Virus record (IMG/VR): IMGVR_UViG_3300010998_000026
Location: 1 to 64,000 of that record
Length of the DNA stretch: 64,000 bases
Strand: one strand, 5' to 3'
From: a virus
Lineage: Duplodnaviria > Caudoviricetes
Shown: one piece after another, positions 11,901 through 63,214 of the stretch
How positions within the stretch are numbered: position 1 is the first letter of the stretch
Layout of the letters: every line of letters starts with the position of its first letter
Program-made: the position numbers and the translations under genes
The notes under the pieces: model-generated
Databases searched by the model: none
What the model was told of the DNA's origin: nothing
Seen by the model: the letters and a program-made list of their open reading frames with translations, nothing else

Positions 11901-14900
11901 TATCAAATGTTTGCGACTGATCCTAAAGTGTCAGGTAGTAATTTTAAAATTATTTTTAAAATTCAGAATTGTCGTAATTATGATGCAGTTATTGCAACAA
12001 ATGTTGCTAATAATATTGGTATTTAGCTAAATGCGCATAATGCAATATTCAAGTCTACTGCTACTGAAATTTCTACTTAGTACGGAGAAAATGAATATAC
12101 TGAATTAGAATTTGAAGTATATAAAAATCATGTAGGAAATACAGAAGTTCAAGCTTCTAATCCATATATGATGGCTTGGATTGACGGTGTTATGACTTCT
12201 GCGCGTCCATATGATGGCAACTTTGTACAAAATACTCCTTCAAATATTATTATTGGTTCTGATGATTGTGATGTATATATTTATTTAGTAAAATATTATC
12301 CTAATGTATTAACTATTGCTGACCATATTTCTAATTTTTTTTCAGATGCTCCAAATGCTACTGAAATGGTTCGCCGCTATGAAAGAAATAATATTCTTGA
12401 TGAAGATGGCGATATTGATTTTAATGCATTAGCAAATAAAAATAAAGATTGCCGTGTATGGTTATACGATATTCCTCGTATGACTACTGGTAAGAAAGAT
12501 TATGTTGGTGGAGTAGGATTTTAGCAAATTTATAAAAATGGTACTGCTTATTAGGACAATCTACATGGTGTAGGTACATTAACAGTACAAGGAACTTCTT
12601 CTGTAAACTATCGTAAAGGCGCGGCAAATACTGATATAAATTTCTATGATACAAAAGATGAAGGTCGTTTAGCATTATGTGAACTTTATGATGGTCAAAA
12701 TAATGATTTATTATATAATATAGTTAATGGTGAAAAAGTTCTTAAACCGGAAAATGAAAGGGGTTTTAAAATTAATACGGATTCAGTTCCAATTACATAT
12801 TCTAATATGAAAGTTAACTTTGCTTCTTGTGAGCAAGTAAATAATATGTGTAATGCTGAATGGTATCAACAATTTTAGCCTTATCCAAGTTTAAGCCCTC
12901 GTGATTGTATGGAATTTAGCATGGGTGTTCAATTTATTCATGATAGAGGTGAAAATGAGCCTTCTGGCGAAGTAATTTTATTTAATGAAAAAACTAATAG
13001 ACAAGCAAATAAATATTATATGTATTCTATTGGTAATTTAGGAACTTCTAAGAAAAATACTCATATTTTCCATAATGAAAATGAATGCTGTGTTGAAGTA
13101 ATGAATAATCAAAACGCGGGTTGCCGTATGATTTCTATTCCTTCAGATTTATAGGCAGACTATACTGCTTATCAAAATGAGCAATATGAAAGTATGACTA
13201 ATTATGATTGGGGTGGAGATAATAAAGCAAAAGACCACTCTTATGAAATGCGTTTCCCAGATACTAAAAATCCATCTAAAGAAATTAAGGCTGGTTGGGC
13301 GCGCTTTGTAAAATGGATGGCTGATAACAATCCTAACGCAGCAACTAATACAGCATTAAATTCTCCGGAAACTTATGCTCCTTATACATTTAAAGGCCAT
13401 AAACGCCAAGGAACACAAGTACTACGTGGTACAACTGTCAATCAATATGCCGGCACTTATACAACTGATAGCTTTGAACGTCGTATGGCAAAAATGTTAT
13501 CTGAATGTGAAGACTATATGGCAATGGACTCTGTTATTTATCATTTCTTATTCATTGAACGCCATACTATGGTTGATAATGTATCTAAAAATACATTCTG
13601 GTCTGCTATGAAAACTAATCAATATATTAATGGTATAGAACAACCAGATACAGAAGGATATTGGATTTGGGATTTAAGTAAAAATTATGATAATGACACT
13701 TCTGATGGTAATAATAATGAAGGCCAATTAATATTTGATTATGGTAATGAGGCGAATGATAGACAAGATGGAAAAGCAATATTTAACGCCGCGGATGCAG
13801 TTTGGTTTGTTTTCAGTAGTAATTTATACGAAGCTTGTTAGGTTATGTTCCAAAATCGCGAAGCCGCGACTTCTAAGAACGGTAAATGGCAAAATGCTTG
13901 GAATGCTTCTGTTTATCATACTTATTTATTAAATGAATAGCGAAAGATTCCAGAACGCGTTTGGAATGAATGTTATTGGTATGATTATTTACGTACTTAT
14001 GAAACAGGTAAAGTATATAATGAAGAAACAGATCAAGATACTCAAATTATTGATAAATCTTGGATTACATTCCTCGATGGTGGGCAAAAAATACATCAGC
14101 GTAAACATTATGAAACATTTGAAGAATTATATGATGCTTCTAAATATCGTAGTAATTTTTCTACTGCTAATACAGTTACATTACGTGGCTATACTCCTGA
14201 TAATGACGATCCTAGTTTAGATGCAGTACCTGCGAAATCTGAAATTTCAGTTAAAATGTACAATAAATGTTATTTAACTGTACATTTTGATGATAATATA
14301 GAAACATAGAAAGCAGGAAAAGGAGAATTAGTAACATTAAGATTTTTAGAAAATGGTCAATATATGCATCTTTCTGATGTAGTTATTAAGATTGATACTG
14401 CTTCTATGATACAAGAAATTGGTGATTTAGCTCCTTTATACCCGGGACAAGCATCTTTTAGCGCGGCAACTCGTCTTCGTTCTATTAAAATTGGTGATTC
14501 TACTCCTGGATATAATAATCCTCATATTACAAATACAGAAACTGGTACCGTAGATTTTGGCGCGAATTATATGTTAGAACATTTAGAAGTACAAAATCTA
14601 TCTAATGCTAATTAGCCATTAAGATTAGCTGATTGTCCTGCTCTTACATATCTTGACGCGCATGGCTCTAGTTTTACTAGTATTACATTTGCTAATGGTG
14701 GATTATTAAATGAAGTATATCTTAATAATCCTACTAGTTTAGAAATGCGTAATTTAGATTTCTTAAGTAATGAAAATTTCCATTTAACAGATCCTACTTC
14801 TGTATTAGAATTACGATTAGAAGGATGTAAACTTTTTAATAATTTATCACTTATTGAAAGTTTAACTAATTTAAATATTATTAGATTAGTTGGAGCTAAT

Positions 14901-24630: not shown

Positions 24631-26847
24631 ATGGACATATTAAAAGTAAAAGTAAATAATGAATGGGTTGCAATTCCTTCCATCACCGGACAACGGGGTA
24701 TTGGAATACAATCTATTACTAAAACAAATACACAAGGTTTAGTTGATACATATACCATCCTATTTTCTGATGGCAATTCAACTACCTTTAATATATCAAA
24801 TGGCGCGGTTCCTTCCTTTACAATTGGTACTGTAACGGAAGGACCTACCGCCGCGGTAACTGTTACTGGAACAGATGCAAATCCAGTTTTAAACTTAACT
24901 CTACCTAATGCAAATGTGCCAACAGCAGTTAGTGAATTAGAAAATGATGCGGGTTATGCTACTGAATCATATGTTGATACAGCGATATCAAATGTGAATA
25001 CAATGAAAATTCACATATGTGCCGCCGCGGAATACAATTCTGAAACTGGCGTTCCAACTATTCAAAATCCCGATACTCAAACTTTCTATCTCGTTCCTGG
25101 CGGTGAAGGCAGTAATTTATTTATTGAGTGGGCATATGTGGATAATGCTTGGGAGCGGTTTGGAAGTGCGGATGTTGATTTAAGTAATTATGTATAGAAG
25201 ACGGATTACGCAACAACAACAAATGCAGGTGTTGTAAAATTAGCAACCAATGGTGGTCTTGTACAATATACAATTGGTAATAATAAATATCTTATAATAG
25301 ATTCTGCGACAGAACAAAATAATAAAAATGGAACACTTGTCTAGAAGCCTATAGCACCAAATACTCTTAATTCTGCAGTATTTTATGGCTTAGCCAGAGC
25401 AGCCGGTGATACATCACAATCTTCTTCTTCAAACGCGGTTGGCACTTATACTGATAATGCTAAATCTGCTATTCGCACAATGCTTGGCGTTTCTTCATCT
25501 GCGGATGTAAGTAATAAAGCAGATAAGGCAGACACAGTATTAGATACAACCCTAAGTCGCGGCCGCAAGGACAACACAACAGTCGGCACCGCCAGTCTTG
25601 CGTTTGGTGTTGACGCGGAAGCAAGCGGCTATTATTCCGTTGCTCTCGGCTTAAATACAGCCGCCGTAAGTCAAGGCGCCTTTGCGGAAGGCAAAGGCAC
25701 GATCGCGCATTATATTGCTCACGCAGAAGGTGAAAATACTGAAGCAAATGGTTAGTGGTCACATAGTGAAGGTGTTGACACAGTAGCAAATGGCGCGGCA
25801 TCACATGCGGGCGGCGATAACACAATCGCAAATGGACATTCTTCATTCGTAACTGGTAGATATAATATTGCTGATAGCTATGATAATTGGCCTTTCTGGG
25901 CAGCAAATACATCATACGCGGTTGGCGATAAAGTAAAAAGAGAATAGCTTATAAACAATGAAGCTACAATAGTTGGTTATATTTGTAAAGAAGCAAATAC
26001 TGATGAATCTTTTGATATAAGTCATTGGGACTTTGATGTTCATCATATGAACTTTGCCGCGATTGTAGGTAATGGATACGAAGCAGAAGACCCAACAACC
26101 CATGAAATGGTAAGACATGGATCAAATGCGTATGCGTTAGATTGGGATGGTAATGGGTATTTTGCGGGAGATGTGTATGTTGGTGCGGATGCTGGTTCTG
26201 CTAATGGAACAAAGCTTGTGAAAGAAAGTGATGTGCCGATTGAATATGGAAGTGGCGTTGGAAGTATAAAAACAAAATCATTTACGACAACAGCGAATGT
26301 AACATATACACAGAACGCTACTGGGACAGCAAGTTCCGCGTTTGGTCTTAGTACAGAGGCAAGTGGCTATACATCACTTGCAACTGGTACTCTAACAAAA
26401 GCTTCTGGTAACTATAGTAGTAGTTTTGGATATTATACAATTTCTAATCTTCCTAGTATGTTTGTAATTGGTACATGTAATATTGAAGCTAGTGAATATC
26501 CTGCATGGGAAGCTAATAAATCATATAGTGTTGGAGATAGAGTAGTACATACAAGAATACTTACTCAAACAATTCGTGTACCTATATGTCTTGAATGTAC
26601 AATTGCCAATAATGATGCAGAATTTACAATGGCAAATTGGAAAAACATAGGCCCGCAAACTTCCCGTAGAGGAGACGCTCTTTTTGTTGTTGGTAATGGA
26701 ATTGCTACAAGTGCTCGTTCTAACGCTTATACTCTTGACTGGGATGGTACTGCACACTACGCAGGCGACATATATATAAATTGTAATTCCGATAGTACCG
26801 GCGGCGAAAAGTTAGTAAATGGCTTAAAGGTGGTGAGGTTGATATGA
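24631..26847 (+). CDS. Tail fibre protein, paralogous modules to 21032-23806 (~738 aa, code 15)
   Basis: Fragments 24631, 25480 and 26047 in one frame; AHAEG repeats; ALDWDG motifs. Confidence 0.8.
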
Positions 26848-48369: not shown

Positions 48370-50322
48370 ATGGATATGATTGATATTATTCTCGCAAGAG
48401 CAAAGTCTTTTACGGGTGAAACAGCAACATTAGTAAGCCAAGCGCAGGCCGCAATGAGTGATGCTAATGATATTGTTAATAGATTAGAAGCTATTGAACA
48501 AAATGCGTCAGATGCTAGTGAAGCAGCAAGCGCGGCCGCAGGTGAATTAGCAGAAATTAAAGCAGATTTTGAGGCCGCGGCAACCGCTGTTGTGGCTGAA
48601 CAACTTGGAACAACAGTTGAAGATGTTGCTGATTTAAAATCAAGAACAACTACGTTAGAAAGTCAAATTGCTAATGCTGGTGGGACAGTAACGGTTACTG
48701 ACGCAAATACTTCCGCAGCAAAAATTAGACAAGCAAGCGTAACAAAAAATGGTACTACTACTAATTATATAGTAGAAAAAAATTATACTAGTGAAGGAAC
48801 CAATGAAGATGGCTCTATGACTTAGAAAGCCATTAAGACTTATGTTGAAAATGTAAAAAATAATTTACAATCTCAAATTAATTCTAGCGGCGGCAATAGT
48901 GGTGGAACCTCTAATCTTGGTTCTAATAATGCAGGCCAAATGGTAGTTATTGGTTCTGATGGGAATATTACTGCAAGTACCACTACAGAACAAGCCTTAA
49001 TTGAACTACTTCTACGTACTGGTACATATTAGGCGCGAGATGCAGTAGGTTTAAATATTGATTATGAAAATAAATCTGTTGGGCGCACACAAGAAGCGAC
49101 ATCTAATACTAATTTTACTGATTACTTAATGTATAAACGTATGCGTTGTAATGTAGCAGATGATGGTACTATTACTGCTTTCTATGGAGATAATAATTAT
49201 AGAGAAGATGGCTCTAATGGGTAGGTAATGGTTTATCAACCAAAATTTTATTATCAGCGCGTTCCAATTAATACTACCAATGGCTTAATGGGTAAAGTTA
49301 TTCATAAAGAATCATTAATTATTTCTCCAATTGCTTAGTCAGGATTTAAACTTCATCCAGCTTTTATTGATAATGCAGGAAATGAATTAGAATATATTCT
49401 ATTATCTGCTTACGAAGGCTCTGCTTATGATACTTCTGCGAATACATATCTTACTACAGACGTAAGTGGAATTAATTTTTCAGAAGATAAATTATCTTCA
49501 ATTGCAAATGTTCAACCTATTAGTGGTAAAAATAATGCTTTAACAATTGATAAAGCAGAACAACTCGCTAGAAATCGCGGTGAAGGTTGGCACATTGAAA
49601 CAATGCAAACTCGTAGTATTGACTAGATGTTAAGTATTATAGAATATGGTACTTTAAATCTTCAAAATGCAATTGAAAACGGCGTATGTAGTATTAATAA
49701 TGCTTATGATAGAAACTATGCAAATAATACAGGTTCTACCGCGGCATTGGGTAATAACTCTGGCGCGGCAGAAAGTAGTGTAAATACAATGTTAAATACT
49801 ACATATAATACAAATGGTAAGCGTTGTATCTCTTATCGCGGTGAAGAAAATCTATTTGGTAATATTTGGAAATTCATTGGCAATATAAATATTTCAGGTA
49901 ATGGTGTTCAATAGGGCGGTATTCCATATATTTGTACAAATTCTAATTATTCAACTACTATTACAGACGACTATAAAAGTGTAGGCTTCTGTCTCCCCAA
50001 TAATAGTGATTGGATTTCTGGTATGGGTTATGGTAATGAAAAATATGACTGGGTATTTTTACCCGCAGAAGCAAGTGGGGCCAATAGCGCAACACCAGTA
50101 GGAGATAGCATTTGGGTTACTACAAATCTAAATGGTGTTAATTATGTTGCTCATGGTGGTAATTGGTTATTCCAGCAAAAAGATGGTATATTTTATTATG
50201 CTTGCGATAAAAACCCAAGTTATTATGCTGCACCTTTTGGCGCGCGTCTTGTTTATATTCCTACTAAAAATTCTATCCATAATAATAATTATGCTTTATG
50301 GCAAAGTAAAATAGGAGGTTGA
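48370..50322 (+). CDS. Tail/virion protein with C-type-lectin/FGE-like C-terminal region (~650 aa, code 15)
   Basis: Fragments 48370, 49627 and 50023 in one frame; VMVYQPKFYY, LHPAF, YRGEENLFGNIW motifs. Confidence 0.8.
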
Positions 50323-50327
50323 TTGCT

Positions 50328-50573
50328 ATGAAAAATTATGGTAAAGTACAAAGTTCTTCATAGCCAACAGAAGTAACTTTTACTGAAACAAAAGTATTTG
50401 TATCTTCTAATATTACTTCCTTTAATACAAATATTGGTGGATATGAAGAAAATGGTTATGAATATGATTATATTGAATATGATAAAGATGAATATATTCA
50501 ATTATTATCTTCTCAATCTAAACAACTTGCAGAAGAACTTGCCGCGGCAAAAATTCTATTAGGAGTTGAGTAA
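50328..50573 (+). CDS. Small hypothetical protein (code 15)
   Basis: YEYDYIEYDKDEYIQLL; one TAG; TAA stop. Confidence 0.7.
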
Positions 50574-50575
50574 TT

Positions 50576-50983
50576 ATGACATTAATTGAATTAGCAAGAA
50601 AATTACGCCCTTTAATAGAAAAGGCAGCAATTTCATTAGATGATATAGATGCGCTTGAAGCGCCGCAATTATTTCCTATTTGGAATCCAAATAAAGAAGA
50701 TATGTATAATGTTGGAGATAGAGTACGTTATAATGAAATATTATATAAATGCTTACAATAGCATATACCACAAGTAGCTTGGAATCCAATTGACGCCCCA
50801 AGTCTTTGGGCTAAAGTATTAATTCCAGATGAAAATGTTATTCCTGCATGGGAACAACCTGGAAGTACTAATGGTTATATGATAGGAGATAAAGTATTAT
50901 TTAATGATAAAGTATATGAAAGTACAATTGATAATAATATTTGGTCTCCCGCGGCATATCCTGCTGGTTGGCGAGAAGTCTAA
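50576..50983 (+). CDS. CBM5/12-like carbohydrate-binding protein (code 15)
   Basis: YNVGDRVRYN..LYKCLQ(Q)H...W.P..APSLW; Y..GDKV.FN..VYES.ID.N.WSP. Confidence 0.8.
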
Positions 50984-50986
50984 TAT

Positions 50987-51015
50987 TTGACTTTTTTTAA
51001 AATTTTTGATATAAT
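50987..51015 (+). promoter_or_regulatory. sigmaA-type promoter
   Basis: TTGACT-17-TATAAT. Confidence 0.8.
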
Positions 51016-51099
51016 ATATATGTAAGAGGGGAAATAGTTCCCTTCTTACATATTAAATATGTGGGATAGGAACCACATTATATAAGGAGAGGAACTTAT

Positions 51100-51441
51100 A
51101 TGAAATTTTATAGTGAAAAACTAAATCGTCTTTTTGACAGTGCAGAAGATTGCCAGAGTGCAGAATTTAAGGCTAAGGAACAAGAAAATCTTGATAAGAT
51201 CCGCAAGGAGCGCGAAGCCGCAGAAGCAAAGGCGAAGAAAGAAAAGGAAGCCGCAGAACGCAAGGCTATGGCGGCGGAAGTAGATGAAGCGCGCAAGGCT
51301 ATGGTCGCCGCTCAGAAGTCTTATCGTGAAGCAATTGAAAAGTTTGTAAAGAAGTATGGTACATATCATTATTCTACAAATAATTTTGAAGATGTGCCAA
51401 CTCTCTTTGATGTTTTTGATTGGCTTCCAAAACTTCTATAA
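51100..51441 (+). CDS. Coiled-coil hypothetical protein
   Basis: RBS; ORF track; no TAG. Confidence 0.8.
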   Translation: MKFYSEKLNRLFDSAEDCQSAEFKAKEQENLDKIRKEREAAEAKAKKEKEAAERKAMAAEVDEARKAMVAAQKSYREAIEKFVKKYGTYHYSTNNFEDVPTLFDVFDWLPKLL

Positions 51442-51468
51442 AATTAAGGGTTGAGTAATCAACCCCAT

Positions 51469-51543
51469 GCGGGCGTAGTTCAACGGACAGAACATAGTCC
51501 TTCTAAGTCTACAATCTCAGTTCGATTCTGGGCGCCTGTACCA
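51469..51543 (+). tRNA. tRNA-Arg(TCT)
   Basis: Cloverleaf; loop CTTCTAA; TTCGATT; CCA. Confidence 0.9.
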
Positions 51544-51903
51544 AAGTTCCTATTACGCCTCTTTACAATGCGCACCCAATAGGACATTTTATTAAAGGTT
51601 TCTTTTATTCTCGCCTTTCCATGGATAAGTAGAATAAACGTCGGGGCTAATTATGGTCTGCGTGAATGACCGCCATGAGTTCATAGCCATGTAAGTTAAT
51701 CCGGAGTAATACTATGACGTAGGGCAACTTTTACGATAATGGAAGTTGTTAGTGGAGAATACCAGCTATCAATGGCTCGGTTTATCTTCGATATAGATAT
51801 GACTTTGTAATTTCAAGAGGAAATTGCTATCCATACTAAATTACGGTTATACATTTTAAGACCCAATCTTAAATTTAATACTAAAATTTAGTATGGATAT
51901 TAT

Positions 51904-51932
51904 TTGACTTTTCTTTAAAATTCTGATATAAT
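51904..51932 (+). promoter_or_regulatory. sigmaA-type promoter
   Basis: TTGACT-17-TATAAT. Confidence 0.8.
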
Positions 51933-51958
51933 AGATATGTAAGGAGGAAGGAAAGAGT

Positions 51959-52075
51959 ATGTATGAACTTGATGATTTTCTCTGTGAACCGAATTGTGAG
52001 GAACTTGAAGAAGAATTTGAAGCTTGGCTTGAGCTTCAAAATCAAGTAGAAGTTAAATATTTGACTTCTTTCTAA
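51959..52075 (+). CDS. Small acidic protein (38 aa)
   Basis: Promoter and purine-rich RBS upstream; MYELDDFLCEPNCEELEEEFEAWL... Confidence 0.55.
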   Translation: MYELDDFLCEPNCEELEEEFEAWLELQNQVEVKYLTSF

Positions 52076-52089
52076 AATTATGATATAAT
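52061..52089 (+). promoter_or_regulatory. sigmaA-type promoter for the RNA cluster
   Basis: TTGACT-17-TATAAT. Confidence 0.8.
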
Positions 52090-52102
52090 AGATATATGAG
52101 AT

Positions 52103-52174
52103 GGGGAGTTAGTTTAGGGGCTAGAATTGCTGCTTTGCACGCAGCGGACACGAGTTCGATTCTCGTACTTTCCA
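52103..52174 (+). tRNA. tRNA-Ala(TGC)
   Basis: GCTGC-TTTGCAC-GCAGC; G3.U70. Confidence 0.9.
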
Positions 52175-52178
52175 TTTA

Positions 52179-52290
52179 AAGGCACATACAGCAAAATCAA
52201 AGATAATCTTTGAATCGCGAGTTCAAATCTCGTCTCGCCCCATTGGGCAAGTAGCATAGTATGGTAATGCAAAAGAATTTTATGTGCCTT
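52179..52290 (+). ncRNA. CAGCAA-scaffold RNA 1 with circularly permuted tRNA body
   Basis: Outer stem AAGGCACATA/TATGTGCCTT; T arm, then acceptor 3' strand, then acceptor 5' strand, then D arm. Confidence 0.75.
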
Positions 52291-52346
52291 GACTTTTTTT
52301 AAAATTATGCTGTAAGTATCGTAAAGAGAAAATATTTTCTCTTTAT

Positions 52347-52422
52347 CGCAGATAGGGCAAACGGTTAAGCCGCGGCGCTCATAACGCTTGAGGAAATGGT
52401 CCAACTCCATTATCTGCGACCA
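52347..52422 (+). tRNA. tRNA-Met/Ile2(CAT)
   Basis: Loop CTCATAA; acceptor CGCAGAT/ATCTGCG; ACCA. Confidence 0.85.
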
Positions 52423-53330
52423 ACGGTTGATACCAGACCGTTAGAAGGTATCCGTTCAAGATGAGAAACATCGACGTAGTGATGTTAGGGCGAAAAGGTA
52501 GAGGCACAATGATGTCAGAAAACCCTGATGCACTTAGAGTCTAGCCCCGCTCAAAGGTGGCAACTGGAGAGCGTATGGTTCCAAAACACCAATAAGTGCG
52601 GCGTAAGCTACCGATGGTACAGGTGCGGTAAGTAAAACCTGTTAAAACCTTATTCACAGGTCGTCAATCATCGTTAGATTGGGATGGCAACCTGATAGCC
52701 AAAGTAATTACTAGTTATCGAAAAAGTGGAAATGAATCGTTTTCACAACTAGTTGTATGGATGTAATGCGAGATTCTCATTACATAACGCTATGGACATG
52801 GCTCCGCCAGGGATGACGGGAAGCGCATAGTATGGTGCCCAAATGCTCAATGTATTAGCTTTTGAAAAGCAAAGCTGGCTTGCAAGCAGCTATACAAGCA
52901 AAGTGAAGAATGGGCTAAATGGAGTTTGAAGAACAGCCAATTAAATCTAGGAGAGACCTAGTATAAATAAGTGAGTCCATTCTGTGAAATGGTTATAAAA
53001 GGCAACGACAGGACGTTAGATTTTCCAAACTAAGCCTTTCAAAAAATGGGATGGGAAAATTAGTGACCTTACACTTAAAAAGGATGCCGAAAAACGGGAT
53101 GGAAGGAAAGTAATGGGTGAAGTCCTTACTGATTGTCGATAAATCAGAAAAGCGGTGGAAGGGCCCTCCGCACCCGTCACAATGTGTAGGTAAATGCGAC
53201 CCGACGGATATGGGGTATGGGTGAAAGCTAACCCATAATTACGATTGCTTGATCAACAGTTGAACGCAGTATGAGTGGATGAATTTCCCTCCCCAGTAGA
53301 GTGACTTCGCGTCTGGGTTATCAAAACGCG
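52422..53330 (+). ncRNA. ~900-nt large structured ncRNA (GOLLD-like candidate)
   Basis: No credible ORF; 5' and 3' hairpin loops complementary (TGATACCAG vs CTGG..TATCA); CGTTCAA/TTGAACG long-range pair; lies between tRNA genes. Confidence 0.55.
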
Positions 53331-53337
53331 CAGTTAT

Positions 53338-53397
53338 GCTCTGATAGTGTAATGGAAAGCACGCCCGGAAGGATTGGTTCGATTCCAATGAAGAGCA
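53338..53397 (+). ncRNA. tRNA-like RNA lacking an anticodon arm
   Basis: Acceptor GCTCT/AGAGC, D arm, T arm ATTGG-TTCGATT-CCAAT, only about 10 nt between the D and T arms. Confidence 0.65.
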
Positions 53398-53548
53398 AAC
53401 AGTTGACACGTATCTGTGTAAAAATGTGAGAAGCAAAGTCGATGAAAAACAAAGATTAAAAGTTTAAAAAAAGTTTGTTATTATTATTGGCGTAATAATA
53501 ACTAGTCGGCGGCGTTTCGCTATTCCGGTGCGCCAACACTGGAATTAT

Positions 53549-53621
53549 GCCCGCATCGAATAATTGGTTAGTTCGTCACCCTTTCAAGGTGAAAATTCCG
53601 GATCGTTCCCGGATGTGGGTA
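53549..53621 (+). tRNA. tRNA-Glu(TTC)
   Basis: TCACC-CTTTCAA-GGTGA; atypical T loop. Confidence 0.85.
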
Positions 53622-53627
53622 TTATAG

Positions 53628-53703
53628 GGTGCATTAGTTTAATTGGTTAAATCCCCAGTCTGTCACACTGGAAACACGAGTTCAAATCTCGTATGCACCG
53701 CCA
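53628..53703 (+). tRNA. tRNA-Asp(GTC)
   Basis: CCAGT-CTGTCAC-ACTGG; GCCA. Confidence 0.9.
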
Positions 53704-53973
53704 TTTGCATCACCTCCTTAATGATGCAACTCTTAACACGAATTTAGCACTTAAACTACCATCGGCACGTCCAAATATCGAAGCAAGTTTCTGAGCAGCC
53801 CTCTTCGAGGCACGTGATATGTGGCTTAGCGGAAAAGAGTATAAATGAAGCGAAGTAAAGTGCAGTGCGCGGCTACACACTATAACAATATGGTGCCTGT
53901 AATGGAGTCAAATGCACCCCTTATAAGGGAGACAACCATAATAGCCCATGCCGAGGGTGTGCTCGGCTTTTAT

Positions 53974-54080
53974 GTGGCAACCAGTAAGCGACCAAAGTAA
54001 TGCTTACGCGGGAGAGTTGTTAGATGTTTTTGCCGACGGGCCGTCTAACACTGTAAGTTCAAATCTTACTTGCTACACCA
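53974..54080 (+). ncRNA. Non-canonical tRNA-like RNA (G3.U70, A73, CCA; enlarged D and anticodon arms)
   Basis: Acceptor GTGGCAA/TTGCTAC-ACCA; T arm GTAAG-TTCAAAT-CTTAC. Confidence 0.65.
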
Positions 54081-54088
54081 TAGCCCAT

Positions 54089-54216
54089 AAGACGGGTCAG
54101 CAATTTTTTTCTTTGAAAATAATTCTGTAAAATTAAGGCGAGGGTTCGATTCCCTCCGTGGTCGGGTGGGCTCCGGCCGCGTGGTGTAGTTGGTCGCATT
54201 AAAAAAGACCGTCTAG
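54089..54216 (+). ncRNA. CAGCAA-scaffold RNA 2 with circularly permuted tRNA body
   Basis: Outer stem AGACGG/CCGTCT; GTA-containing loop hairpin, T arm, closed acceptor, D arm. Confidence 0.75.
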
Positions 54217-54241
54217 TTTATTTTTTTTATATGGTGATAAT

Positions 54242-55186
54242 ATGGCAGAAAACAAATATACCGCAACTGATTTAAAAGAAATGTAGGCATGGCCGCTAGA
54301 AAGAAAAATTCAAGTTTCTTAGACAAGGATTCTTGAATTTGGTGACCATTTTAATGGAAAGATTTTTGTTGCTTTTAGCGGTGGAAAAGATAGTACAGTT
54401 TTACTTGATTTAGTAAGACGTGTATTTCCCGATACTCCTGCTGTTTTTATTGACACAGGCTTAGAATATCCAGAACTAAAAGAATTTGTAAAATCACACG
54501 AAAATACAGAAGTTATTAGACCTAAGAAAACGTTTAGACAAGTAATTGAAGAATTTGGCTATCCAATTGTAAGTAAAAAAATTGCTGGCTATGTTGCTAC
54601 TGCAAAACGAAATCCTAATTCCGCACGCGCAAAATTTTTGAGCGGTGAATATGATAGTAAAATATTTGGTTTTGGTGATGGTAAATGGAATTTCTTAGTT
54701 CAAGCACCATTTAAAATTAGTGATTATTGTTGTGATGTAATGAAAAAACAACCAAATCATCACTATTCAAAAGAAACTGGTCGTTTTCCAATTCTTGGAA
54801 CATTAGCATCTGAATCTATTGCTCGTCGTAATGAATGGATGCGTAGCGGTTGTAATTTATTTGATAGCGATAAACCTACATGTAAGCCATTATCTTTCTG
54901 GACTGATAATGATATTTTAGAATATTTAGTAAAATATAATATTCCATATTGTCCTTTATATGGTGATATTATAAAAGATAAAAAAGGTAATTGGACTACA
55001 ACAGGTATTAAAAGAACTGGTTGTATTTTTTGTGGTTTTGGTGCACATTGTGAAAAATGTCCAAATCGTTTTCAACAATTAAAGGTATCACATCCAAAAA
55101 TTTGGGAATATTGTATGCGTCCTTGGGAAGAAGGCGGCCTAGGATTAAAAGAAGTATTAGATTATATTAATGTCCCTTATGAATAA
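54242..55186 (+). CDS. Phosphoadenosine phosphosulfate (PAPS) reductase family protein (code 15)
   Basis: VAFSGGKDSTVL PP-loop, DTGLEYPE, CCDVMKK, RTGCIFC; 2 N-terminal TAG. Confidence 0.85.
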
Positions 55187-55197
55187 GTGGTGATATA

Positions 55198-56880
55198 ATG
55201 AGAGCAGCAGTTTATTGTGGTACGAGAAATTTATATAAAAATATGGTAATTGCGGCGAAATCATTACTTATTCATTCTAATGTAGAAAAAATTTATTTTC
55301 TTATTGAAGATGATATTTTTCCTTATGAAGTACCATAGGGAATAGAATGTATAAATATAAGTAATTAGAATTATTTTAGAAAGAATGGCCCAAATTATAA
55401 AAGTTCTTGGACTTATATGGCACTAATAAAAGCAGCCTTTACTAAAATTTTTCCATAGTTAGATACAATTTTATCATTAGATGTTGATACAATTATAAAT
55501 GAGAATATATCTAATTTATGGGATATAGATATATCTAATTATTATGTCGCGGCAGTTCCTGAACCAGATAAAACATATGATGACTTTACTTATATTAATG
55601 TTGGCGTTGCTTTATTTAATTTAAAAAAAATGAGAGAAGATAAAAAAGATGATGAAATTATTTATCTTCTTAATTCAATAAAATTAGGTTATCCAGAGCA
55701 AGATGCAATTAATATTTTATGTCAAAATTATATTTATAATTTGCCAGCAGATTATAATATAAATAATTATACATAGAAAGCCTCACATAGAAAAATTATT
55801 CATTATGCTGCAATAAAAAAATGGCAAGACTTGCCGCTTATTTCTTATTATGAAAAAATGGAATTAGTAAGAAATAAAGAAGATAATTTTAATTTAGATA
55901 TTATAATTCCGACTTATAATAATGAATAGGGATTAATTACTACTTTAAAGAGTATTCCAAATCGAGAAGAAATTACAATTAATATTATTGATGATGCTTC
56001 TCCAATTTCTTATAAGAAGAAAATATTTTCATTATTTCCATATGTAAATTGGATAACATTAAAGAAAAATTCTGGCCCTGGTGTTGCTCGTGAAATAGGT
56101 ATAAAAAATACTAGTAATCCATATCTTATGTTTATTGATACTGGTGATTATTTATATTCAAATGAAGTTCTTGATAGAATATTAAATGATATAAAAAATA
56201 ATACAATGCCAGATATATATTTATATCAATGGTATAATGAAGAAAATAAACAATTTAGTACAGATTGGAATCCATTAATGCACGGGCATATTTATAAGCG
56301 AGAATTTTTAGAATTATATGATATTGATTTTTGTAAAGAATCTTCTTACTCTAATGAAGATATAGGTTTTAATCATACTTGTGATATGATTTTAAATCAT
56401 ATTGAGATGTATGATACTACAGAACATAAAGTATTTTATGAATATCCAATTTATTTCTATACTTATGATGCTAATTCTATTACTCATGCAGGTGGAAAAG
56501 AATATTATTATACAAAACAAATTGCTGGATTAGCGGCTAATGCTAAACATGTAATAGATAATGCAGAAAAAAATAATATAAATATATATGTATTATTAAA
56601 TGAATTAAATGTATTATTTGTTGGATTATATGAAAGTTTTCTATTATGCGCGAAAAAACGGCCTGATTTATTATATGATAATTGGTATTATATTAGGCAA
56701 TTTTATTTTGAAGTATATTAGAAATATGAAAGTAAAAGTGAAGATGCGTTAGGTATTGCTATTAGTTAGAAAATGAAGCATCTATTACGAGCAGGGATAA
56801 GAAATATAAATGTAAAACGCTTTATTTCTAATTTAAAACAATTTGAAAATTTACCAGATTATTATTTGACATAGATATAA
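55198..56880 (+). CDS. Fused GT8 + GT2 glycosyltransferase (~560 aa, code 15)
   Basis: GT8: LSLDVDTI, YINVGV, PEQDAIN, IIHYA; GT2: IIIPTYN, IIDDAS, NSGPGVAR, FIDTGD; single frame through TAG. Confidence 0.85.
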
Positions 56881-58245: not shown

Positions 58246-58321
58246 AGATACGTCAGCAATTTTTCTTCTCAAGCGGTATTTTGAAGCACCGGGTCGGCTC
58301 CGGGAAGATAAGCGTATCTAG
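58246..58321 (+). ncRNA. CAGCAA-scaffold RNA 3
   Basis: Outer stem AGATACG/CGTATCT-AG; shares the GGGT.GGCTCCGG segment with RNA 2. Confidence 0.7.
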
Positions 58322-59556: not shown

Positions 59557-60144
59557 AACTCTCTGTTTAGCAATTACGAACCAAGTGAAGATGTGTTAGC
59601 CACACAGCTTGGGCTACCTGGATAACATCGCAGACCTTGATGGGATACTTTCAAGTATGCGACGCGAAACTAGTAATAGTTAGCGATAAGGGAGAAACTC
59701 CAAATGTTAAGGGTAGGCGCCGATTACTTCGCTTGTAAATGCACGATTCCTCACGGCGGCACAATAGAAAGCTAGGTTAAGAGCCAGGCCGAATCCAGAT
59801 AAGGTGTTGGGGTGGTAGCCAATACAACCTCTGGAAATAACCACAAGTCGCTACTGTCGGTGAAAGTCAGAAATGGCATATAAGTGAGGTTTACGGTTGG
59901 AGTAGCTCAAGACAGCAAATGAATATGTTATTAAAAAGAAGCGTTTTAATTCTTTTCATATTGCTGAATGGCTTGGGTGAAACTTGAAGGTAGACAATCC
60001 TTCCTATTCTCGGCGCGAAAGCGCGGCTATTAGATGGTATGAGGTCGCTACTCATGCTACAGCCTAATGGTCAATAGTAGCATAATATACAAGAAGAAGA
60101 TAATTGGTATGGCGAAGGTCACGCTAATTGTTAAACAGAGAGTT
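59557..60144 (+). ncRNA. ~590-nt large ornate ncRNA, probably ROOL
   Basis: 20-bp terminal stem AACTCTCTGTTTAGCAATTA/TAATTGTTAAACAGAGAGTT; internal GAGTAGC/GCTACTC pair; size and phage tRNA-array context match ROOL. Confidence 0.65.
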
Positions 60145-61195: not shown

Positions 61196-61272
61196 ACGAC
61201 GATTACAGCAAATTTTTATAATAATATAAGCAATAATCTTTTAAATTATGTAGCTAATTTTAAATCGTCGTG
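61196..61272 (+). ncRNA. CAGCAA-scaffold RNA 4 (Lys-UUU-like anticodon stem-loop)
   Basis: Outer stem ACGACGATT/AATCGTCGT; internal ATAAT-CTTTTAA-ATTAT. Confidence 0.7.
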
Positions 61273-61283
61273 TTATTTATTAT

Positions 61284-61378
61284 AGCCCCTTAGCTCAATT
61301 GGTAGAGCACCGGTCTCTAAAACCGTGATATGCCTCTGAAGCAGGTTGTTCTGGGTTCGACTCCCAGAGGGGTTGCCA
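61284..61378 (+). tRNA. Amber suppressor tRNA (anticodon CTA) with a 19-nt extra arm
   Basis: CCGGT-CTCTAAA-ACCG; acceptor AGCCCCT/AGGGGTT-GCCA; T arm CTGGG-TTCGACT-CCCAG. Confidence 0.9.
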
Positions 61379-61383
61379 TAGTT

Positions 61384-61461
61384 TAGACCATTACAGCAAT
61401 TATTTAATGAATTAAAGAAAATATTTTTGCTACAAATCCTTTCTCAAATTAAATGGTCTAG
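61384..61461 (+). ncRNA. CAGCAA-scaffold RNA 5 (Ser-GCU-like anticodon stem-loop)
   Basis: Outer stem TAGACCATT/AATGGTCTA; internal ATTT-TTGCTAC-AAAT. Confidence 0.7.
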
Positions 61462-63056: not shown

Positions 63057-63128
63057 GTGGTCGGTAGTTTAACGGTAAAACCTCGGATTGTGGCTCCGAA
63101 GACGCAGGTTCAACTCCTGTCCTTCCAA
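63057..63128 (+). tRNA. tRNA-His(GTG), acceptor stem with mismatches
   Basis: TCGGA-TTGTGGC-TCCGA; G-1. Confidence 0.8.
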
Positions 63129-63138
63129 TTTTATTTAC

Positions 63139-63214
63139 GCCGAGGTAGCTCAGCAGGAAGAGCAGGAGACTGAAAATCTCCGTGCCGGTGGTTCAATTCC
63201 GCCCCTCGGCACCA
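63139..63214 (+). tRNA. tRNA-Phe(GAA)
   Basis: GGAGA-CTGAAAA-TCTCC; ACCA. Confidence 0.9.

Follow-up and report, generated by a model that had tools for sequence, protein, structure and literature searches.

Positions 54089-54216 of the window analyzed here (i.e., the whole 64,000-nt stretch of DNA, from a 76-kb contig of a TAG-recoded phage) carry four tRNA arms on the plus strand. An anticodon-like hairpin comes first, followed by the T arm, a capped acceptor, and the D arm, and all four stand between the two strands of a helix that joins the ends of the element. Its parts are as follows.

54090-54097, plus strand: 5' strand of the handle closing helix, AGACGGGT, in which AGACGG pairs with CCGTCT at 54209-54214 (MFE fold and alignment to covariance model R1)
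54098-54103, plus strand: CAGCAA handle motif, directly 3' of the closing-helix 5' strand; matches the invariant CAGCA of the family
54104-54119, plus strand: A/U-rich linker (T7 C TTT G AAAA), read from the sequence
54120-54135, plus strand: anticodon-arm-like hairpin with a 5-bp stem, TAATT (54120-54124) and AATTA (54131-54135), and a 6-nt loop, CTGTAA (54125-54130), that contains GTA
54136-54139, plus strand: 4-nt variable region AGGC, read from the sequence
54140-54156, plus strand: T arm GAGGG-TTCGATT-CCCTC; aligns with the corresponding arm in the tmRNA and YrlA models
54157-54181, plus strand: sealed acceptor hairpin, with 3' strand CGTGGTC (54157-54163), linker (54164-54174), and 5' strand GGCCGCG (54175-54181)
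54182-54199, plus strand: TG (54182-54183; tRNA positions 8-9) and D arm GTGT-AGTTGGTC-GCAT (54184-54199), with equivalents of A14 and G18 G19
54200-54216, plus strand: T and A6 run, closing-helix 3' strand GACCGTCT (54207-54214), and conserved AG tail (sequence and R1 alignment)

The original prediction had described this locus as a circularly permuted tRNA body, and every arm that it listed was found in its place: the locus holds a complete tRNA-shaped body in permuted order, with its opening placed between D arm and anticodon-like arm. Equivalents of U8, A14, G15/C48, G18 G19, T54/A58, and G53-C61 can be read in the sequence. The two acceptor strands form 7 bp, including two G-U pairs, and with three further pairs from the linker this helix grows to 10 bp, closed by a 5-nt loop, in both the MFE and centroid folds. 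It has no CCA, and its 3' strand is followed by GGGT rather than NCCA. AGGC also stands 5' of the T arm in a Felixounavirus homologue, and GTGT...GCAY D arms are present in the Felixounavirus and PK-3 homologues.

In the closing helix (54090-54097), the last two pairs may take one of two registers, with either a G bulge or a G-A mismatch. The T run of the linker at 54104-54119 could pair with the A run at 54201-54206 and thereby extend the handle, a pairing absent from the MFE fold. We propose that CAGCAA (54098-54103) is a protein-recognition bulge, which would be single-stranded and protein-bound. An open anticodon stem of the YrlA type would require the letters that follow the D arm to pair with those that precede the variable region; they do not, and this structure was rejected for the element.

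By folding energy, neither the element (z = -1.45, equaled or surpassed by 20 of 200 shuffles) nor the whole 532-nt spacer (z = -1.58) stands out significantly. A T-rich run (54217-54228) directly follows the element. One RNA-library contig of 169 nt lies on 54091-54229, at a depth of 3.9 and with 10 letter differences and 3 gaps, and it could be DNA carry-over.

A family of handle-tagged small RNAs

The contig contains seven handle-tagged small RNAs, of which the element is one. In handle RNAs, the 5' and 3' ends are held together by a helix of 8-10 bp, the 5' strand of which is directly followed by an invariant CAGCA(A) bulge, and the remainder is a variable cargo. The following sister elements, and one neighbor, are relevant here.

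52179-52292, plus strand: sister element ("body 1"), with the same handle and a different permuted tRNA body; YrlA model, 37.2 bits; R1, 50.4 bits (training member)
53974-54080, plus strand: tRNA-like RNA with a 7-bp acceptor (third pair G-T), T arm, and ACCA; ends 9 nt before the element
58246-58321, plus strand: family member with a small non-tRNA cargo; R1, 34.7 bits (training member)
61196-61272, plus strand: family member whose cargo holds CTTTTAA, a tRNA-Lys(UUU)-type anticodon-loop sequence; R1, 52.4 bits (training member)
61384-61461, plus strand: family member with a small cargo; R1, 59.2 bits (training member)

The bulge in the closing helix hides 54089-54216 from a strict CAGCAA-plus-stem pattern, which also gives many chance matches in coding DNA. 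We therefore used R1, a covariance model built without 54089-54216 and with the elements that begin at 52179, 58246, 61196, and 61384 as training members. In this leave-one-out setting, R1 finds the element with 31.1 bits (model positions 1-84) at an E value of 0.0011, and its best match outside the listed family elements has 19.8 bits and an E value of 0.16, all R1 E values being rough owing to a short calibration. Among 22 other members from four genomes, the closing helix is 88.9% paired and 8 of its 9 pairs show compensatory changes, a covariation score reached by none of 500 shuffles; slid controls are 21-43% paired. CAGCA is invariant in all 22 of these aligned members as well as in the 33 permuted bodies described below, and among the 22 the A that follows hardly varies. 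The 3' end of the family, G.CT(A/T)G, is also nearly invariant.

Permutation had been predicted twice in the same scaffold. Indeed, it recurs in 52179-52292, which is unrelated in sequence, and in many other phages, and is therefore not a chance arrangement. Look-alikes of 52179-52292 in G001 and G002 carry compensatory hairpin changes. For 52179-52292 itself, the open-anticodon-stem pairing and an alternative are both possible, and both covary in the G001 look-alike. A search of Rfam at E ≤ 1 found no family for the handle RNAs at 61196-61461. The tRNA-like RNA at 53974-54080 was not called by ARAGORN under any of five settings, and its fold shows the acceptor and T arm; 3' processing of this RNA would set the 5' end of 54089-54216.

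Relatives of the element itself were sought in several ways. No match to 53700-54240 was obtained by blastn among 50,697 phage records, and none to the element at E ≤ 1e-3 among 30 related loci. A comparison of 51400-54241 with 36 loci gave promoter-like repeats and a few short pieces only, none of them within 54089-54216. The exact 20-nt T arm/acceptor pattern occurred at 8 viral loci, all of them ordinary tRNA-like contexts and none an orthologue. Since these searches found no orthologue of 54089-54216, its own arms are without covariation support.

Same-strand linkage to a gene for a predicted Ro60-like protein

The contig encodes, at contig positions 69427-70929, a 500-aa protein with DUF7788 and DUF2828 (Pfam). 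The gene lies on the same strand as the element and ~15 kb downstream of it, and directly upstream of it are an AAA_33 kinase gene and a Metallophos_2 phosphoesterase gene. Homologues of the protein were found in 703 phage records by tblastn, and relatives are encoded on at least 529 stretches of viral contigs.

We scanned 80 other viral loci, whose DUF2828/DUF7788 homologues are 38-67% identical, with R1 at E ≤ 0.1. All 168 matches share the strand of the DUF2828/DUF7788 gene. When the best 150 of these 168 are considered, 144 lie upstream of the gene and 6 downstream, with flanks of about equal size (666 kb and 681 kb); at least one match is present in 58 of the 80 loci, and 22 are without a match among the best 150. 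A T run follows 45 of the best 150. The handle family is thus linked, on the same strand and mostly upstream, to a gene whose product has a predicted Ro60-like fold.

Carriers include cultivated phages. For Bacillus phage PK-3, 6 matches were obtained upstream of the gene annotated as DUF2828; four handles adjoin the gene in E. coli O157 typing phage 11 (Felixounavirus), one of them, at 12392-12517 of locus L154, having the arm order of 54089-54216; three are found just upstream of the gene in Listeria phage cka4; and three stand directly behind the annotated "Ro-like RNA binding protein" gene of Mycobacterium phage Calm, the middle one matching YrlA with 39.8 bits. In the literature on Y RNAs, phage Ro60, tRNA mimics, and permuted tRNAs, we found neither the handle nor phage-borne permuted tRNA bodies described, and 22 phages in the supplement of PMC4201824 may include carriers. 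For a related Listeria phage, the available text of PMC12282133 describes unannotated regions next to an Rsr-like gene that are transcribed at very high levels, and it suggests that these regions are Y RNAs; as far as that text goes, this suggestion is the nearest precedent in the literature. The literature found on DUF2828 included nothing on phages or Ro.

The linked protein is predicted to fold like Ro60, i.e., with a ring of helical repeats ahead of a vWA domain that bears a MIDAS motif. Its AlphaFold model has a pLDDT of 94.7 with a 116-row alignment (41.7 from the single sequence), and the top 12 PDB matches of the model are all Ro60/TROVE entries (E values from 7.6e-8 to 1.2e-5, TM 0.41-0.58, over 518-586 alignment columns). 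In addition, the DxSxS motif of the MIDAS (D295, S297, and S299) is invariant in the protein alignment. At the sequence level, searches of the protein against the PDB gave nothing significant, a profile search reached TROVE proteins only at an E value of 1.9, and Pfam TROVE (PF05731) had no match in the 76-kb contig, which is 43% complete.

Permuted bodies and other cargoes in other phages

Among the best 150 R1 matches, 29 carry a T arm, capped acceptor, and D arm in the order seen in 54089-54216, and 75 carry, on the same handle, a cargo without a T arm. We assembled an alignment of 33 permuted bodies (A4), most chosen by script and the rest by eye or by model matches. Overall, 96.2% of the A4 cells are paired, a percentage that is partly by construction, given that the rows were chosen because they pair; compensatory cells number 195, versus 57 in shuffles. 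All cells of the T stem (100%) pair, with 4 of 5 pairs covarying, all 6 pairs of the acceptor hairpin covary, and the D stem is 89.5% paired. NCCA occurs in 10 of the 33 bodies, exactly after the 7-nt acceptor 3' strand, where ~0.5 would be expected by chance.

Homologues with the same arm order as the element therefore exist in other phages: the four A4 rows with this order are 54089-54216 itself, typing phage 11, PK-3, and L125. These four have four different hairpin loops. At the place of the anticodon-like hairpin, typing phage 11 has TTTCT-CCGGTAA-AGAAA, and PK-3 and L125 have complementary flanks (by eye). The canonical 7-nt loop CTGTAAA is found in four other family members. Across 164 distinct members, five types of canonical anticodon loop, which were chosen after the counts had been seen, occur on hairpins 24 times in total, versus a shuffle mean of 0.18 and a maximum of 3 in 300 shuffles; Lys-UUU accounts for 8, Ile-GAU for 6, and Tyr-GUA for 4.

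The element read as a tRNA

In Cyanidioschyzon merolae and some archaea, the products of permuted tRNA genes pass through a circular intermediate and are turned into working tRNAs by a splicing endonuclease and a ligase. The element resembles these genes in that the 3' part is encoded before the 5' part, with a short linker between the acceptor strands. It differs from them in its 6-nt loop, its lack of CCA, and its conserved handle of a putatively protein-binding type, as well as in having sisters that carry non-tRNA cargo. No splicing motif was seen at 54089-54216.

In its native order, the element was not recognized as a tRNA by ARAGORN or Rfam, and ARAGORN found no tmRNA there. After re-permutation, a check that accompanied the original prediction, ARAGORN called a tRNA in all 18 junction variants at the default threshold, with scores of 107.6-111.9, to be compared with 101-122 for the phage's own tRNAs. 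With this tRNA score and the homologues of like arm order, neither of the outcomes that the original prediction had named as refuting it was obtained. The ARAGORN call reads "tRNA-?(Thr|Tyr)(gt)", with a 6-nt loop in the anticodon arm. The predicted Tyr-like anticodon hairpin is a fair description of a mimic, with GTA in the loop, and falls short of a true anticodon arm, as the loop has 6 nt rather than 7 and yields a two-letter anticodon.

No tRNA-Tyr is among the 28 tRNAs that ARAGORN calls in the 76-kb contig; since the contig is only 43% complete, a normal tRNA-Tyr may lie elsewhere in the phage. The tRNA-Tyr(gta) of a related phage is of the 86-nt long-arm type, versus the 4-nt variable region in 54089-54216. 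A joint at 54089-54216 was not seen in the contigs of three RNA-library runs and one DNA run, which is weak evidence because the runs were available as contigs only and these are unable to show rare forms and say nothing on uncovered parts. RtcB (Pfam) was not found in the 76-kb contig, a result that covers 43% of the phage and does not imply absence from the whole.

Resemblance to YrlA and other RNAs

Among known RNAs, YrlA-type Y RNAs come closest, and 54089-54216 contains their tRNA-like domain, with T arm, capped acceptor-like stem-loop, D arm, and V region. The full-length Rfam YrlA model (RF02553) scores 22.3 bits on the element, against a cut-off of 69 (E value of 0.034 in a 701-nt search), and it also matches the adjacent tRNA pair at 63080-63189 with 21.6 bits. 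Like YrlA as described in the available text of PMC4201824, the element has its two ends joined by a helix, with a conserved motif close to the 5' strand, and its module likewise runs from T arm through capped acceptor-like stem-loop to D arm. Both lie on the strand of a Ro60-type gene; YrlA cannot be charged, and the same would hold for the element. Set against the same text, there are also differences: the motif near the 5' end is GNCGAAN0-1G (a proposed Rsr site) in YrlA and CAGCAA in the handle RNAs, and the best YrlA matches lie within 4 kb of a Ro60 gene, whereas the gene here is 15 kb away (PMC4201824). Furthermore, 54089-54216 has an extra anticodon-like hairpin, and its chain enters between the D and anticodon arms instead of via an open anticodon stem; the proposed partner of the handle RNAs matches DUF2828/DUF7788 and not TROVE; and handle RNAs are multicopy in a genome, have interchangeable cargoes, and are embedded in a tRNA array.

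Thermus phage phiLo offers a second likeness, with a phage Ro60 ring and two stem-bulge-stem phage RNAs (Yrl1 and Yrl2) upstream of its gene (PMC12135203, available text). The phiLo structures (PDB 9KOP and 9L5Y) rank second and third among the structural matches of our protein model. The phiLo RNAs differ in having a CGAA bulge, and that text describes no tRNA-like cargo for them (PMC12135203). The similarity of the protein sequences is not significant (E value of 1.9).

Some observations weigh against a Ro60-like partner. CAGCAA is not the GNCGAAN0-1G or CGAA of the Y RNAs described in the available texts of PMC4201824 and PMC12135203, the gene is 15 kb away, the YrlA score is low, and the likeness to Ro60 is one of predicted structure, with a TM of about 0.5-0.6.

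Two-piece tmRNA (RF04321 and related) resembles the element in the succession of T arm, acceptor 3' strand, linker, and acceptor 5' strand, and the tmRNA model matches the T arm of the element with 16.4 bits; 54089-54216 differs in lacking a tag reading frame, the third-position G-U acceptor pair, and CCA. The Class I RNAs of Dictyostelia likewise have a short covarying end stem, an ~11-nt conserved motif beside the 5' strand, and a variable remainder, and they start with AAG and end with CUGU, where the phage handle RNAs start with (A/T)AG and end with CT(A/T)G (PMC7919456, available text). They differ in being eukaryotic and 42-65 nt long, and the binder reported in that text is an RRM protein; the motifs were compared by description only (PMC7919456).

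DISCUSSION

Collectively, we consider it likely (probability of roughly 0.68) that 54089-54216 encodes a phage small RNA, namely a sealed, rearranged copy of a tRNA on a conserved handle, which is the partner of the phage Ro60-like ring protein and is not a working tRNA gene. The RNA would be cut from the transcript of the tRNA array by tRNA end-processing, and the ring protein would bind its handle as Ro60/Rsr binds the stem and bulge of a Y RNA. The sealed tRNA mimic would then be an effector module, neither chargeable nor decoding, and it might present a tRNA shape to a tRNA-recognizing enzyme, for instance one for repair or processing, or a defense nuclease by which the host cuts tRNAs. 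It may thus serve as a tether or a decoy, as is thought for YrlA-type Y RNAs.

A much smaller chance is given to a free-standing decoy, or sponge, for a host tRNA-targeting defense nuclease or modifying enzyme, for which the Ro60-like protein would not be needed and the handle would provide stability and ends. The sealed acceptor, which blocks charging and keeps the tRNA elbow and core, is what such a decoy would show, and the excess of canonical anticodon loops (24 versus a shuffle mean of 0.18 in 164 members, with types picked after counting) points the same way. However, this explanation accounts neither for the same-strand position of 168 of 168 matches and the upstream placement of 144 of the best 150 nor for a motif that is invariant in sequence beyond what a helix demands. 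Moreover, the 6-nt loop makes 54089-54216 a poor imitation of an anticodon loop, and we know of no nuclease target for the host.

We regard as improbable a two-piece RNA precursor, in which RNase P and 3' trimming would open the acceptor loop in the manner of two-piece tmRNA or M. smegmatis YrlA, the tRNA-like end would become chargeable or extendable, and the handle would hold the pieces together. Its acceptor does have 7 bp in tRNA register, a feature that the available text of PMC4201824 ties to RNase P cleavage in YrlA, and NCCA follows the acceptor 3' strand in 10 of the 33 related bodies against ~0.5 by chance; yet 54089-54216 itself has GGGT at this place, and three extra pairs seal the end.

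That the locus is a true permuted tRNA-Tyr gene appears very improbable. Its transcript would lose the handle, have the D arm ligated to the anticodon arm, be processed by RNase P and 3' trimming, receive CCA, and decode UAY. The ARAGORN score of up to 111.9 after re-permutation, the GTA in the loop, the absence of a tRNA-Tyr among the 28 tRNAs called in the contig, and the encoded NCCA kept in the acceptor loop of 10 of 33 related bodies would fit such a gene, as would the M. smegmatis YrlA, which is cut by RNase P and given CCA (PMC4201824, available text). Re-ligation into a working tRNA-Tyr, as originally expected, is nevertheless made unlikely by the 6-nt loop with its two-letter anticodon, the stable 10-bp acceptor hairpin sealed without CCA, the 4-nt variable region where a related phage has a long-arm tRNA-Tyr of 86 nt, the loop that differs among the four A4 rows of the same arm order, and the cargoes on the same handle that could not be tRNAs. 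The lack of an RtcB ligase in the contig (43% complete) and, weakly, that of a joint in the contigs add to this.

Least probable of all is a functionless by-product, i.e., remnants of two adjacent tRNA genes, array recombination, or a processing or terminator signal: the YrlA model scores adjacent tRNAs similarly (21.6 bits), the folding energy is unexceptional (z = -1.45), and a T-rich run follows the element, but the two acceptor strands pair with each other, which is unexpected for strands of two different tRNAs, the handle and all arms covary across phages down to 38% protein identity, the leave-one-out R1 match supports family membership, and only 45 of the best 150 members are followed by a T run.

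Returning to a handle RNA that is bound by the Ro60-like protein, we tentatively suggest, as a possibility that is itself rather unlikely, that the handle is an address tag: the ring would load any handle RNA, and the phage would display a changing panel of tRNA look-alikes. Members of the panel would be whole sealed tRNAs whose cloverleaf is broken open at varying places, bodies that retain NCCA, and bare anticodon stem-loops of Lys-UUU, Ile-GAU, or Tyr-GUA type. Such look-alikes might bait the anticodon nucleases of the host or guide cut tRNAs to the neighboring kinase and phosphoesterase for repair, and 54089-54216 would be the Tyr-type bait of its phage. Still more speculatively, such a handle might also account for the unexplained Class I RNAs of social amoebae.

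Ro60 and Y RNAs are conserved from bacteria to humans. Here, one conserved handle bears dozens of different, recognizable tRNA parts and travels with a gene for a predicted Ro60-like protein in many phages. Since these cargoes are legible, being whole sealed tRNAs or specific anticodon loops, they point to functions in tRNA damage, repair, or decoy during infection. For annotation, handle elements explain many "empty" gaps in phage tRNA arrays as well as false or missed tRNA calls. In addition, the carriers include easily grown phages of E. coli and Salmonella (Felixounavirus), Listeria (P100-like), Bacillus, and Mycobacterium smegmatis, and these functions are therefore directly testable at the bench.

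Anatomy of the element

All of the pieces that the original prediction listed for the tRNA-shaped element at 54089-54216 were found where it had placed them.

Parts of the element, in 5' to 3' order
54120-54135: anticodon-like hairpin, TAATT-CTGTAA-AATTA
between this hairpin and the T arm: AGGC
54140-54156: T arm, GAGGG-TTCGATT-CCCTC
directly after the T arm: acceptor 3' strand, CGTGGTC
between the acceptor strands: linker, 11 nt
after the linker: acceptor 5' strand, GGCCGCG, then TG
ending at 54199: D arm, GTGT-AGTTGGTC-GCAT

Equivalents of U8, A14, G15/C48, G18 G19, T54/A58, and G53-C61 can be read straight from the sequence. In the predicted fold, the acceptor is a closed hairpin of 10 bp with a 5-nt loop, and its three extra pairs come from the linker. 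Around the body, AGACGG.. (54090-54097) and ..CCGTCT (54207-54214) pair to form a closing helix, and CAGCAA (54098-54103) lies directly behind the 5' strand of this helix, followed by an A/U-rich linker. Hereafter, the closing helix and its CAGCA(A) motif are termed the handle, and the variable remainder is termed the cargo.

In its native order, the element was reported as a tRNA by neither ARAGORN nor Rfam, and its folding energy was unremarkable (z = -1.45). The original prediction proposed running ARAGORN after re-permutation; when the two halves were cut and rejoined by coordinates in a script, a tRNA was called in all 18 junction variants at the default threshold, with scores of 107.6-111.9 (101.4-122.0 for the 28 tRNAs called in the contig). 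One low-depth RNA-library contig maps to 54091-54229, which gives only a hint of expression.

The handle family

Seven elements framed by the handle were found in the contig, starting at 52179, 54089, 58246, 61196, 61384, 67360, and 67540. Five of them begin 2-5 nt 3' of an ARAGORN-called tRNA, element 67540 begins 35 nt behind a tRNA, and element 54089 begins 9 nt after the ACCA of an uncalled tRNA-like RNA. More handle elements are present in related phage records, which were located via the neighboring PAPS-reductase gene. An alignment of 22 members from four genomes, with element 54089 left out, revealed an invariant CAGCA and nearly invariant termini, (A/T)AG.C ... G.CT(A/T)G. In these 22 members, 88.9% of the cells of the 9-pair closing helix were paired, with compensatory changes in 8 of the 9 pairs; its covariation score was reached by none of 500 shuffles, and slid controls paired at 21-43%. 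R1, a covariance model of the family built without the element, recovered it at 54090-54216 with 31.1 bits and a (rough) E-value of 0.0011, while the best match beyond the listed family elements had 19.8 bits and an equally rough E of 0.16. The element is thus a member of the handle family, because a model that had not seen it finds it.

Genomic setting

The source contig is 76,141 nt long and an estimated 43% complete. From ~51.4 kb on, the window is densely packed with tRNAs and other non-coding RNAs, and a full-length ROOL RNA lies within this tRNA array (59557-60141; 317.7 bits vs a cut-off of 99.1). The element lies in the 540 nt that separate tRNA-Asp (53628-53703) from a PAPS-reductase-like gene starting at 54242. 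Reading frames here are open only with TAG readthrough (two in-frame TAGs in 54242-55186 and eight in 55198-56880), and a 95-nt tRNA with anticodon CTA is encoded inside the array (61284-61378). Across 48370-56880, three genes are of this kind, the two just named included, with in-frame TAG counts of 6, 2, and 8. At 51898-51957 and 52048-52097 lies a promoter-like repeat (TTGACT, spacer, TATAAT), which also occurs elsewhere in the contig and in many related loci (77-89% identity); it probably directs transcription of some parts of the array.

Several other RNA-like stretches were observed in this region. Directly 3' of tRNA-Arg, 51549-51584 matched the abiF RNA motif at 31.7 bits, close to but below the cut-off of 37. 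A 60-nt tRNA-like gene at 53338-53397 (tRNA model, 30.2 bits) is devoid of most of the anticodon arm, with 1 nt standing for 13 tRNA-model positions. Between a tRNA-Met-like gene and a truncated tRNA lie ~900 nt (52416-53330) with no credible reading frame and no Rfam match at gathering scores; relatives of this stretch are heavily covered by contigs of three RNA-library runs, with a summed word depth of up to ~380 (run X22) vs ~8 in the DNA run, and the stretch is a candidate for a large structured RNA. The 107-nt tRNA-like RNA that ends 9 nt ahead of the element (53974-54080) has a 7-bp acceptor with a G-T third pair, followed by A and CCA. Its T arm is perfect, two long hairpins replace its D and anticodon arms, and ARAGORN never called it under five settings.

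A linked protein with a predicted Ro60-like fold

No TROVE match was found in the contig. On the same strand as the element, contig positions 69427-70929 encode a protein of 500 aa with matches to DUF7788 (2.2e-44) and DUF2828 (9.1e-27); the family to which it belongs is very large (6,426 cluster representatives at E <= 0.001). Its AlphaFold model, based on a 116-row alignment, reached a pLDDT of 94.7 and a pTM of 0.93, and its best twelve PDB matches were all Ro60/TROVE structures (E 7.6e-8 to 1.2e-5, TM 0.41-0.58, 518-586 alignment columns), including Xenopus and human Ro60, Deinococcus Rsr, and Thermus phage phiLo Ro60; at the sequence level, the link to Ro60 was not significant. The DxSxS MIDAS motif is invariant in the alignment of the protein. 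Genes for an AAA_33 P-loop kinase and a Metallophos_2 phosphoesterase, a pair that would fit RNA-end healing, lie directly upstream on the same strand, outside the window (contig 68293-69377; L039 319-1403). The Ro60-like gene was found in four of the five related records searched, the fifth being an 18-kb fragment.

We used R1 to search 80 viral loci with protein homologues that are 38-67% identical, covering up to 10 kb on each side. This analysis yielded 168 matches at E <= 0.1, every one of them on the gene's strand. Among the best 150 of the 168, 144 were upstream of the gene and 6 downstream, with similar total lengths of flank searched (666 kb and 681 kb). At least one match occurred in 58 loci, and 22 had none among these best 150. 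Of the best 150 matches, 44 started no more than 15 nt from a tRNA 3' end (vs 1.4% of random positions), and a T run follows 45.

The protein was found by tblastn in 703 phage records, and four cultured carriers were examined. Upstream of the annotated DUF2828 gene of Bacillus phage PK-3, R1 gave six matches (E 1.1e-5 to 2.5e-3), located among tRNAs. In E. coli O157 typing phage 11 (Felixounavirus), the gene directly precedes the tRNA array, and four handle RNAs occupy array gaps. One of these (L154 12392-12517) is a homologue with the arm order of the element: hairpin TTTCT-CCGGTAA-AGAAA, AGGC, T arm, capped acceptor, TG, and D arm GTGT...GCAC. Mycobacterium phage Calm carries three handle RNAs directly 3' of a gene annotated as 'Ro-like RNA binding protein', the middle one scoring 39.8 bits with the YrlA model, and Listeria phage cka4 carries three (L155 9664-9927) at most ~340 nt upstream of the Ro60-like gene. 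In the related Listeria phage CKA15, unannotated regions near tRNA genes, one of them 26,236-26,727, reportedly rank with the most heavily transcribed parts of the genome, and virions are reported to contain the Rsr-like protein CKA15_055; the authors' guess was that the abundant RNAs are Y RNAs (PMC12282133). Judging from the similar coordinates in cka4, these transcribed regions seem to be the three handle RNAs.

Cargo diversity

A script requiring paired stems assigned cargo classes to the best 150 of the 168 R1 matches: 29 had a T arm, capped acceptor, and D arm in this order, 5 had a T arm and capped acceptor, 41 had only a T arm, and 75 had no T arm. We aligned 33 permuted bodies, including element 54089, its sister at 52179, and the cultured-phage copies. 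In this alignment, 96.2% of the cells were paired, a percentage that is partly by construction, because the selecting script demands pairing for most rows; compensatory cells numbered 195 vs 57 in shuffles, and the score was reached by 0 of 500 shuffles. Row selection has no bearing on the diversity of pair types or on the constant order of the arms.

The cloverleaf is opened at other points in other members; in some, such as L086 6013-6139 (loop CTGTAAA), the D arm is followed by an entire anticodon arm, and the arm order of element 67540 is acceptor, D, anticodon, T. Canonical anticodon loops on hairpins were common among 164 distinct members (CTTTTAA, 8; CTGATAA, 6; CTGTAAA, 4; CTGAAAA, 3; CTTCCAA, 3); these five types, picked after the counts were seen, total 24 vs a mean of 0.18 and a maximum of 3 in 300 shuffles. 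In 10 of the 33 aligned bodies (chance ~0.5), element 54089 not being one of them, the sealing loop contains N-CCA immediately downstream of the 7-nt acceptor 3' strand; this N-CCA could reflect either an origin from tRNA genes with encoded CCA or a loop that is opened to give a two-piece RNA. Two handle RNAs (L088 7493-7625 and L068 9809-9945) have cargoes resembling a permuted long-arm tRNA-Tyr: the loop is CTGTAAA, the variable stretch is long, the acceptor loop contains ACCA, the D stem has 3 bp, and the anticodon-stem 5' strand is repeated after the D arm.

The anticodon hairpin of the element had been described as Tyr-like. The hairpin is present, and its loop has six nucleotides, as the ARAGORN output for the re-permuted element, 'tRNA-?(Thr|Tyr)(gt)', indicates. 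It is improbable that the element is a permuted tRNA gene, because of this short loop, which is also unconserved among the four aligned rows with the same arm order, because the acceptor is sealed and without CCA, because the variable region is short whereas a relative's tRNA-Tyr is of the 86-nt long-arm type, and because the same handle bears non-tRNA cargoes.

Relationship to Y RNAs

Among known RNAs, the YrlA-type Y RNA is closest to the element; it is described as having an end-joining helix with a conserved motif and a module of T arm, capped acceptor, and D arm, and as lying beside Ro60 (PMC4201824). Phage Ro60 with stem-bulge-stem RNAs is likewise known (PMC12135203). The YrlA model also gave 21.6 bits over a tRNA-His/tRNA-Phe junction (63080-63189), and tandem-tRNA false positives of this model are warned of in PMC4201824; given this match, low YrlA scores call for caution.

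The element differs from YrlA-type RNAs in its handle motif (CAGCAA rather than GNCGAA), its additional anticodon-like hairpin, and its candidate partner, a predicted Ro60-like fold of Pfam DUF2828/DUF7788. In addition, handle RNAs are multi-copy, with swappable cargo, inside a tRNA array, and the element scores only 22.3 bits on the Rfam model (cut-off, 69). We infer the binding of the handle by the Ro60-like protein, the ends of the element RNA, and its function. Given these differences, we therefore file the element as a variant of the Ro60/Y-RNA kind and not as a YrlA member.
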